The position numbers were made by a program, and so were the translations under genes. Shown piece after piece: positions 9,540 to 9,762 of a DNA stretch of 64,000 bases. The number at the start of each line of letters is the position of its first letter. Positions within the stretch are counted from its first letter, which is position 1. Source of the stretch: Eledone cirrhosa (lineage: Eukaryota); NCBI GenBank assembly GCA_964016885.1, contig OZ024744.1, positions 56,482,001 to 56,546,000 on the forward strand. Direction: 5' to 3'. The notes beneath the pieces were generated by a model that had not been told where the DNA came from, did not search any database, and saw only the letters and a list, made by a program, of their open reading frames with translations.

Positions 9540-9762
9540 CTTTGCGTTGCTATCCTTCTATGTTTGTTTACTTGTCTCGCTCGCTTTACACGATTTACTT
9601 GTCCCAATAGCTTTATTTAGCTATTGCTCGCACCAACTGGAGGTATATGATTTTTAAAGCGATGAAATACCAATGAAGGTTGGAAAATCACTGATGAAGG
9701 ACTATTCTTATCATATGTAGCCCATGTGCAACCACGCAGTATTCGATTCTTCTCATGTTTTT
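9540..9762 (+). mobile_element. TA-flanked non-coding element, copy 1 (pseudoknotted-hammerhead family)
   Basis: Homologous to 17225-17600 and to the reverse complement of 36568-37040. It ends TTCTCATGTTTT followed by (TA)n. Confidence 0.85.
9601..9702 (+). ncRNA. Candidate non-canonical hammerhead ribozyme, copy 1
   Basis: GGTAT-A-TGATTTT ... GAA-ATACC ... AAAATCA-CTGATGA, with stems I and III complementary. Confidence 0.65.

Follow-up and report, generated by a model that had tools for sequence, protein, structure and literature searches.

At one point in a 64,000-nucleotide stretch of Eledone cirrhosa DNA (the whole of which is hereafter called the window) a kink-turn (k-turn) sequence extends stem III of a hammerhead motif, the sequence blocks of which run from 5' to 3' in the order S-G-C, the non-circular permutation termed type SGC. 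This raises the question as to whether the kink is what would allow so crossed a topology to close within a single molecule, and whether it would do so unaided or under the influence of the host protein Snu13/15.5K. Both possibilities had been put forward in a preliminary description of the locus.

Architecture of the permuted motif

Every base named in that description between 9633 and 9683 was found as given, in all three copies of the motif in the window (Table 1). The 3b.3n pair is A.G in copy 1 and U.U in copies 2 and 3, and the outer helix, which had been said to change in concert, does so in the three copies (CCAACG/CGTTTGG in copy 2 and CCAACC/GGTTGG in copy 3, beside the strands of copy 1 in the table). 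The single A to G change within the motif of copy 3 is likewise present, as A1n>G at 36692, and is likely to be a decay mutation. When folded with ViennaRNA, copies 1 and 3 form both k-turn helices around a 3x6 internal loop, while the minimum free energy structure of copy 2 lacks the two helices around this loop; the z-scores of the whole motif, at -0.7 to -2.0, are modest because its pseudoknots fall outside the ViennaRNA model. A scan of the window with Rfam yielded no matches at gathering score, and the scan by E-value gave chance matches alone.

Table 1. Window coordinates of the repeat copy, the k-turn and the predicted hammerhead elements
Feature	Positions	Strand	Basis or remark
Copy 1 of the repeat: ~519-bp unit, 5'-truncated, with a (TA)n run on either side	9540..9762	+	Homology with 29 other loci
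Strand a (GTCC)	9601..9604	+	Predicted partner: GGAC after the CUGAUGA core
Hairpin b, arm of predicted four-way junction	9605..9626	+	Covariation, folding
Strand c (TCGC)	9628..9631	+	Predicted partner: GCGA before GAAA
k-turn, non-bulged strand (outer NC helix strand, 3n, G2n, A1n)	9633..9641	+	Sequence, genome counts, alignment
Outer helix strand, non-bulged side (CCAACT)	9633-9638	+	Copy 1
3n = G	9639	+	Copy 1
Non-bulged GA (G2n, A1n)	9640-9641	+	Copy 1
C helix strand (GGTAT)	9642-9646	+	Copy 1; partner ATACC at 9667-9671
Block S: 3' strand of stem III (C helix of the k-turn) with AUA triplet	9642..9647	+	Sequence
Predicted cut site	between 9647 and 9648	+	By analogy
Stem I strand past the cut site	9648..9653	+	
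Block G: c' (GCGA), U11.1, GAAA, stem III 5' strand	9659..9671	+	
k-turn, bulged strand (AAU bulge, G1b, A2b, 3b, outer helix)	9672..9683	+	Sequence, counts, alignment
Bulge (AAT)	9672-9674	+	Copy 1
Bulged-strand GA (G1b, A2b)	9675-9676	+	Copy 1
3b = A	9677	+	Copy 1
Outer helix strand, bulged side (GGTTGG)	9678-9683	+	Copy 1
Block C: stem I strand, CUGAUGA (9691-9697), A10.1, a' (GGAC)	9685..9702	+	
Copy 2 of the motif	17438..17541	+	U.U subfamily with a bulge in the outer helix; k-turn at 17471-17522
Copy 3 of the motif	36631..36733	-	U.U; k-turn 36700-36650

The hammerhead core is complete, with CUGAnGA, GAAA and UH elements set against stems I and III, and the blocks follow one another in the permuted order (S at 9642-9653, counted here with the stem I strand past the cut site, then G at 9659-9671 and C at 9685-9702). 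The core bases formed part of the search patterns and their invariance in the alignment is thus non-independent; at position 17, 43 of the 69 aligned rows have A and the other 26 have C, G having been shut out by the parser. The C and G blocks are not joined by an unbroken stem II; in its place stands the single pair 10.1-11.1, which is a standard pair in 58 of the 69 rows and unpaired in 11, with both sides changed in 10. Beyond this pair the strand following CUGAUGA pairs with the upstream strand a, and the strand preceding GAAA pairs with strand c. Stem II is accordingly likely to consist of one pair that gives way to a four-way junction, in which helices a and c would enclose hairpin b. 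At the other end of the motif the outer helix stops a single nucleotide short of both the stem I tip and helix c, and the three would meet in a distal three-way junction. The linker from stem I to the stem II strand measures 4-5 nt, which was counted as agreeing with the typical 3 nt.

The S-G-C order, the intact CUGAnGA/GAAA/UH core and a short linker from stem I to the stem II strand are all shared with the type-SGC ribozymes (HRIMA-1 and the SGC variant) of Eckert et al. 2023 (PMC10085705). Unlike the latter, in which stem II is continuous and an 'I' helix is present and of which the tested examples came from IMG/M contigs, the present motif has a one-pair stem II with a predicted four-way junction, a stem III that passes through a k-turn, and a high-copy animal host. 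As the 'I' helix is replaced by the outer helix and two junctions, the motif would work like type SGC but is filed with neither HRIMA-1 nor the SGC variant. In the available main text and supplement of that paper the word 'kink' is absent, as are 'Octopus', 'Eukaryota' and 'Metazoa' from the available supplement. The k-turn itself has the same 3-nt bulge, tandem G.A/A.G pairs and C:G pair as the standard k-turns Kt-7, drum, RAGATH-18 and box C/D (PMC8191799, PMC4382518, PMC5689011), from which it differs in being set inside a small, predicted self-cleaving ribozyme motif. The k-turn tag described in PMC9521606 is engineered, and no natural k-turn in a hammerhead or another small self-cleaving ribozyme was found in the literature within reach of the search, most subscription papers lying outside it.

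Conservation of the k-turn sequence and covariation of the helices

The two GA dinucleotides, the conservation of which across genomic copies was in question, are retained in the great majority of them. Among 6,885 genomic copies of the invariant core, GA is present on the non-bulged strand in 6,560 (95.3%) and after the 3-nt bulge in 6,656 (96.7%), with reversed-pattern controls at zero. The losses fit decay after insertion. Since copies decay neutrally once inserted, what the counts establish is the presence of GA/GA in the source elements, and selection is deduced from the differences between subfamilies.

For this, 69 copies of what is here called family A were aligned. They derive from 129 parsed motifs, from which family B, copies truncated into the microsatellite, other linker lengths and duplicates were dropped to leave 75, less six rows of family C; two of 30 near-identical loci were kept, and many of the aligned copies were hand-picked for rarer subfamilies. 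Over 33 pairs and 69 rows, 94.9% of the cells are paired as against 89.9% in shuffled alignments, and double-change cells number 147 as against 47, with slid controls reaching 25-45% pairing; two of the five covariation measures show no clear win over the shuffles (29/500 and 181/500), and kinship inflates the other three. Both helices flanking the k-turn are present. Changes on both sides are seen at five of the six pairs of the outer (NC) helix, where they are compensatory and extend to the wider family the concerted change seen in the window, at four of the seven pairs of hairpin b, at two of the six pairs of stem I (97.8% paired) and at one pair of helix a, the outer pair of which is G-C in 55 rows and A-U in 10; the 10.1-11.1 pair counts as one further pair of this kind. 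Helix c (96% paired) and stem III, i.e. the C helix of the k-turn (96.5% paired), are nearly invariant within family A. Helix c takes the form GGCGC/GCGCC in family B, and the sequences that pair in stems III and I differ entirely from one to another of the three families A, B and C.

All four bases of the tandem G.A pairs are present in 59 of the 69 rows. Variants at the level of subfamilies occur at L1, 3b, 3n, 4b, 4n and in the outer helix, and none occur at 1b, 2b, 1n, 2n, -1b, -1n, L2 and L3; as 63 of the 102 columns are likewise free of such variants, the invariance of the four G.A bases is by itself weak evidence. The 3b.3n position is occupied by U.U in 29, U.G in 14, A.A in 12 and A.G in 7 of 66 rows, and by a Watson-Crick pair in just 1, where about 18 would be expected under independent assortment (the rows themselves being non-independent). 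A Watson-Crick pair at this position impairs the folding of k-turns (PMC4382518), and its near-absence is the most specific sign of a k-turn that the alignment offers. The -1b:-1n pair is C:G in 63 of the 69 rows, a context favourable to folding.

A descriptor that joins the permuted layout to the outer helix is satisfied by 89 of 194 GAAA..CUGAnGA cores in loci of the same genome, and, among the matches listed, by none of 119 cores in 126 viral and metagenome loci (120 viral and 6 metagenome). Of 97 copies of family A, 92 have GAAA and CUGA spaced by 23 nt, under a search pattern that allowed 21-27 nt.

The host repeat and its probable Naiad relatives

A pattern that left the k-turn unconstrained has at least 10,599 exact matches in the 3.0-Gb genome, with none for the reversed control. 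The unit, the length of which (~519 bp) was taken from locus L003, has a longest ATG-initiated ORF of 99 aa in one 519-bp unit and is counted as ORF-less. Its copies are truncated at the 5' end and have a common 3' end adjoining (TA)n, which in most copies lies at a fixed 60-80 nt past the core; partial tandems are frequent, with spacings mostly of 502-637 bp, and head-to-head inverted copies also occur. In loci L039 and L078 inverted pairs were observed in which one or both arms start at or beside the predicted cut site. The preference for (TA)n targets, the 5' truncation, the partial tandems and the inverted copies are insertion features of Penelope-like elements (PLEs; PMC8557442), and like features have been described for non-LTR retrozymes (bioRxiv 10.64898/2026.07.22.740005). 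The latter similarly consist of ORF-less tandem units derived from PLE ends with one hammerhead each; they carry type I (C-G-S) hammerheads, whereas the repeat has the non-circular permutation S-G-C. With its tandem ORF-less units, 5' truncation and inverted copies the repeat has the features of a non-LTR retrozyme or a non-autonomous PLE, save that it lacks the type I hammerhead per unit of retrozymes. Cervera and de la Pena reportedly worked on non-LTR retrozymes in 2020.

Several other hammerheads and repeats were met alongside. A minimal canonical type I hammerhead of another repeat family lies at 24725-24765 (+) of the window and has the CUGAUGA-AGGAC start and the GUCC partner in common with the permuted motif; locus L061 has further ones of this minimal canonical kind, likewise from different repeats, near 2330 (-) and 4800 (-). 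At 10530-10640 of the window there is a long inverted repeat with arms of ~50 bp and a CUGAAGA..GAAA core on the minus strand, the like of which recurs in loci L085, L122, L125, L129, L138 and L144. Two inverted copies at 22560-23420, with CUGAUGA followed ~14 nt on by GAAA (22663 -, 23369 +), are probably another PLE end. Long minisatellite arrays with 39-bp and 17-bp units occupy 482 to about 5000 and 11677 to about 16500.

Among PLEs the Naiads (PMC8557442) have the same (TA)n targets, 5' truncation, partial tandems and inverted copies, and differ in that the repeat has no ORF. Naiads were reported to be without canonical hammerheads, eight being flagged as having a 'half core' (Craig et al. 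2021, PMC8557442). Inspection by eye of the published consensus sequences (CTGATGA places 21-48 of 62, all 23 CTGACGA, all 25 CTGAGGA and 10 of 43 CTGAAGA places, together with part 25 of 59, a reading that misses motifs broken across two lines) recovered unrecognised SGC or CSG hammerheads in at least 15 of them, the table in that source comprising 54 Naiads. In nine the blocks run S-G-C, and stems I and III as well as helix c are paired. Six, in File S5 near parts 13-16, follow the C-S-G order, with each of the three stems complete; of this order Eckert et al. had two examples only (PMC10085705). By the same inspection, the two octopus elements Naiad_Obim and Naiad_Ovul have at their 3' ends the a-b-c layout and the hairpin loop of the Eledone repeat, along with a 3-nt bulge ending in U, GA/GA, U.U and a U:A pair at -1b:-1n, while every helix differs in sequence from that of the Eledone motif. 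The other seven S-G-C Naiads have a large bulge in three cases and, in one case each, a bulge of 3 nt, a bulge of 5 nt, a three-way junction or a bulge of 1 nt. A discontinuity 5-10 bp from the core is seen by eye in eight of the nine; the motif with a 1-nt bulge only, in a stem III of 15 bp, does not suit a sharp bend in cis. In the consensus that ends before Naiad_Adux in File S5 (PMC8557442) the hammerhead core runs S-C-G (type III-like); it holds long insertions, and its stem III is extended and irregular.

The motif is likely to descend from the 3' end of a Naiad element, and a related permuted motif appears, on comparison of these ends, to be the ribozyme that Naiads were thought to lack. 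That the descriptors applied to Naiads assumed a circular order and a continuous stem II would explain why such hammerheads were overlooked. The permuted reading of Naiad ends is absent from the available passages and section I of PMC8557442, and no report of SGC hammerheads in animals or Naiads was found in the literature that the search could reach, which excluded most subscription papers.

The genome contains 10,595 GIY-YIG candidates. No Naiad-type order (N-terminal GIY-YIG and C-terminal RT) was seen in 20 loci, picked for long frames from 150 scored GIY-YIG places; in these the endonuclease follows the RT in every long ORF with both motifs called. No SGC motif lies within 520 nt after the 12 ORFs examined, no PLE match was obtained within 6 kb upstream of 20 divergent copies with distant Neptune-like and Penelope-like queries, and a Naiad-like relic (L194/L210) has two relatives only. 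In loci L048, L049, L061 and L062 5'-truncated copies of the repeat are fused head-to-head, at differing breakpoints, with Neptune-like PLE fragments, which belong to one element with an RT as well as a GIY-YIG at the C terminus; given these fusions, the mobilising enzyme may not be that of a Naiad. Uninterrupted Neptune-like ORFs of 844-1096 aa from stop to stop are found in loci L120, L121 and L122, and their length implies that PLEs with a C-terminal endonuclease were recently active.

Proposed closure of the fold and its alternatives

In a rough axis model, the lengths and other inputs of which are assumed, the gap between the end of the outer helix and the tip of stem I is 66-68 A when stem III is straight and shrinks to 34-40 A for an angle of 90 degrees and to 16-21 A for one of 50 degrees; the reach is ~30 A. 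As the gap closes only at an included angle of about 50 degrees, closure in cis seems to need a sharp bend. Whether that bend must be a k-turn can be judged from sister families. A looser pattern led to further families (830 matches against 22 in controls), and another pattern gave nine matches, one of them to a different, canonical motif. Family B retains the spacing and the 3-nt bulge, and the non-bulged GA is absent in all of its 22 copies: it is replaced in five by UA, which resembles the non-standard Kt-23 (PMC2790904), and in seven by UC, which closes GA into a plain bulge, while the remaining copies mostly have a larger loop. Family C has a k-turn-like sequence with other helices, and the non-bulged GA in 5 of 10 old copies; in both families the UGA of the bulged strand was demanded by the search patterns. 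It was further observed that in family B (loci L141-L158 and L195-L208) helices a, b and c abut directly on the core, that the loss of the k-turn is graded, and that the triplet is GUU, GUC or GUA. The connectivity does yield the cage of the earlier proposal, in which the kink turns stem III round towards the stem I tip, and the rough model agrees with it. The proposal is weakened by family B, which lacks the non-bulged GA, and by the Naiads that have a plain bulge, a three-way junction or a 1-nt bulge at this place: the k-turn is one way to make the bend and no requirement.

Taking the sequence evidence together, it is probable that a structural k-turn closes the S-G-C hammerhead in cis without need of a protein, with a predicted self-cut after AUA or AUC. 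Under such a mechanism stem III would run for 5 bp, kink, and then lead back through 9 bp to stem I and helix c, and the distal three-way junction would replace the contact between loops I and II of ordinary hammerheads. The kink would form in Mg2+ alone, so that one RNA unit could close by itself. Self-cleavage of tandem transcripts might then release unit-length RNAs, possibly circles as in retrozymes, which a Penelope-like RT/endonuclease would copy in trans into (TA)n; Snu13/15.5K may bind the k-turn but would likely not be required. RNAs of type SGC cleave in vitro at 0.007-0.19 per minute (Eckert et al. 2023, PMC10085705).

The alternative that deserves most weight, though it is unlikely, is an assembly between units, wherein block C of another unit or molecule docks on blocks S and G, the k-turn merely parks its own block C or aids folding, and the crossed closure in cis becomes needless. 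The frequent tandem arrangement of the copies would suit such an assembly, as would a title cited in PMC10085705 to the effect that small PLE hammerheads cleave as dimers, the six Naiad consensus sequences with a native C-S-G order, the S-G-C Naiad with an almost straight stem III, and the spread of family B with no k-turn. Against this, the fixed 23-nt distance from block G to block C with its 1-nt linker, and the discontinuity near the core in all but one of the S-G-C Naiads, fit closure in cis.

It had also been suggested that host Snu13/15.5K might modulate the fold, and in its strongest form this would make the protein necessary to kink stem III, thereby gating both cleavage and mobilisation. 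15.5K holds a U at L3 in a pocket. L3 is U in 67 of the 69 rows, which is the sole hint of a contact from outside the motif. The L3 base makes no contact within the k-turn RNA itself (PMC5061560), L7Ae folds all tested k-turn variants (PMC5689011), and U.U is the commonest 3b.3n pair, all of which might favour a role for the protein. Yet the main determinant of folding in Mg2+ without protein is G at -1n, with U.U being a middle folder (PMC5689011), and -1n is G in 67 of the 69 rows, so that these published rules predict folding in Mg2+ alone and render Snu13 likely optional. The U.U subfamilies differ in this G from the tested box C/D k-turn (PMC5689011). Copy 1 carries C:G at -1b:-1n, A:G at 3b:3n and G:U at 4b:4n, the same combination as drum and RAGATH-18, both of which are better folders than Kt-7 when Mg2+ is the only aid (PMC8191799). 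The C:G pair in nearly all rows and the G at 3n in 21 of 66 likewise favour protein-free folding, 3b.3n drifts among four states, and family B has spread without the non-bulged GA. Modulation by Snu13/15.5K finds no direct support here, and an obligate protein switch is improbable. A bolder proposition, that non-circularly permuted hammerheads are the Naiad ribozyme across animals and that the octopus-type U.U k-turns depend on Snu13/15.5K and are gated by it, such that mobilisation is tied to a snoRNP assembly factor, is speculative and would be rather surprising.

A fold that is real yet non-catalytic, serving as a structure for recognition or priming by the PLE RT, with the core as inherited baggage or a weak cutter, seems quite implausible. 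It could draw on the one-pair stem II, on the fixed 3' end past the core in most copies, and on the genome-wide copy counts, which fall along the motif from 9,529 through 8,001 and 6,885 to 6,560 with a similar loss per base on either side of the predicted cut site and hence no step marking 5' ends there. Of 33 copies with a homology end within 100 nt, 12 end 35-49 nt upstream of CUGA where about 5 would be expected, but this sample was partly hand-picked with inverted pairs counted twice and is set aside as evidence. In opposition to the non-catalytic view, all catalytic positions are correctly placed with respect to three covarying stems in three families and in distant Naiads, and 86% of the copies picked by downstream bases only carry the cleavage-site block. 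A chance resemblance, or an element akin to a box C/D snoRNA, in favour of which Rfam gives a weak match to snR66 (26.6 bits, where the cut-off is 65), can practically be dismissed, as no core passes the descriptor among the matches listed in the control loci, the helices covary, and the stem sits inside rather than outside the C- and D-like boxes. A box C/D snoRNA proper was separately rejected: a terminal stem closing C/D boxes with guide space is lacking, and there are no Rfam matches at gathering score.

Non-circular permutations of RNAs were described in 2023 from environmental (metagenome and metatranscriptome) contigs, and how the distant helix ends meet in three dimensions was left open by Eckert et al. 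(PMC10085705). The present family offers a testable answer, namely that stem III bends sharply; natural variants exist by the thousand, the k-turn-less sister family makes a built-in control, and a natural k-turn in a small ribozyme would be a handle for L7Ae-controlled cleavage and for structural work. The family would also move non-circular permutation into animal genomes.
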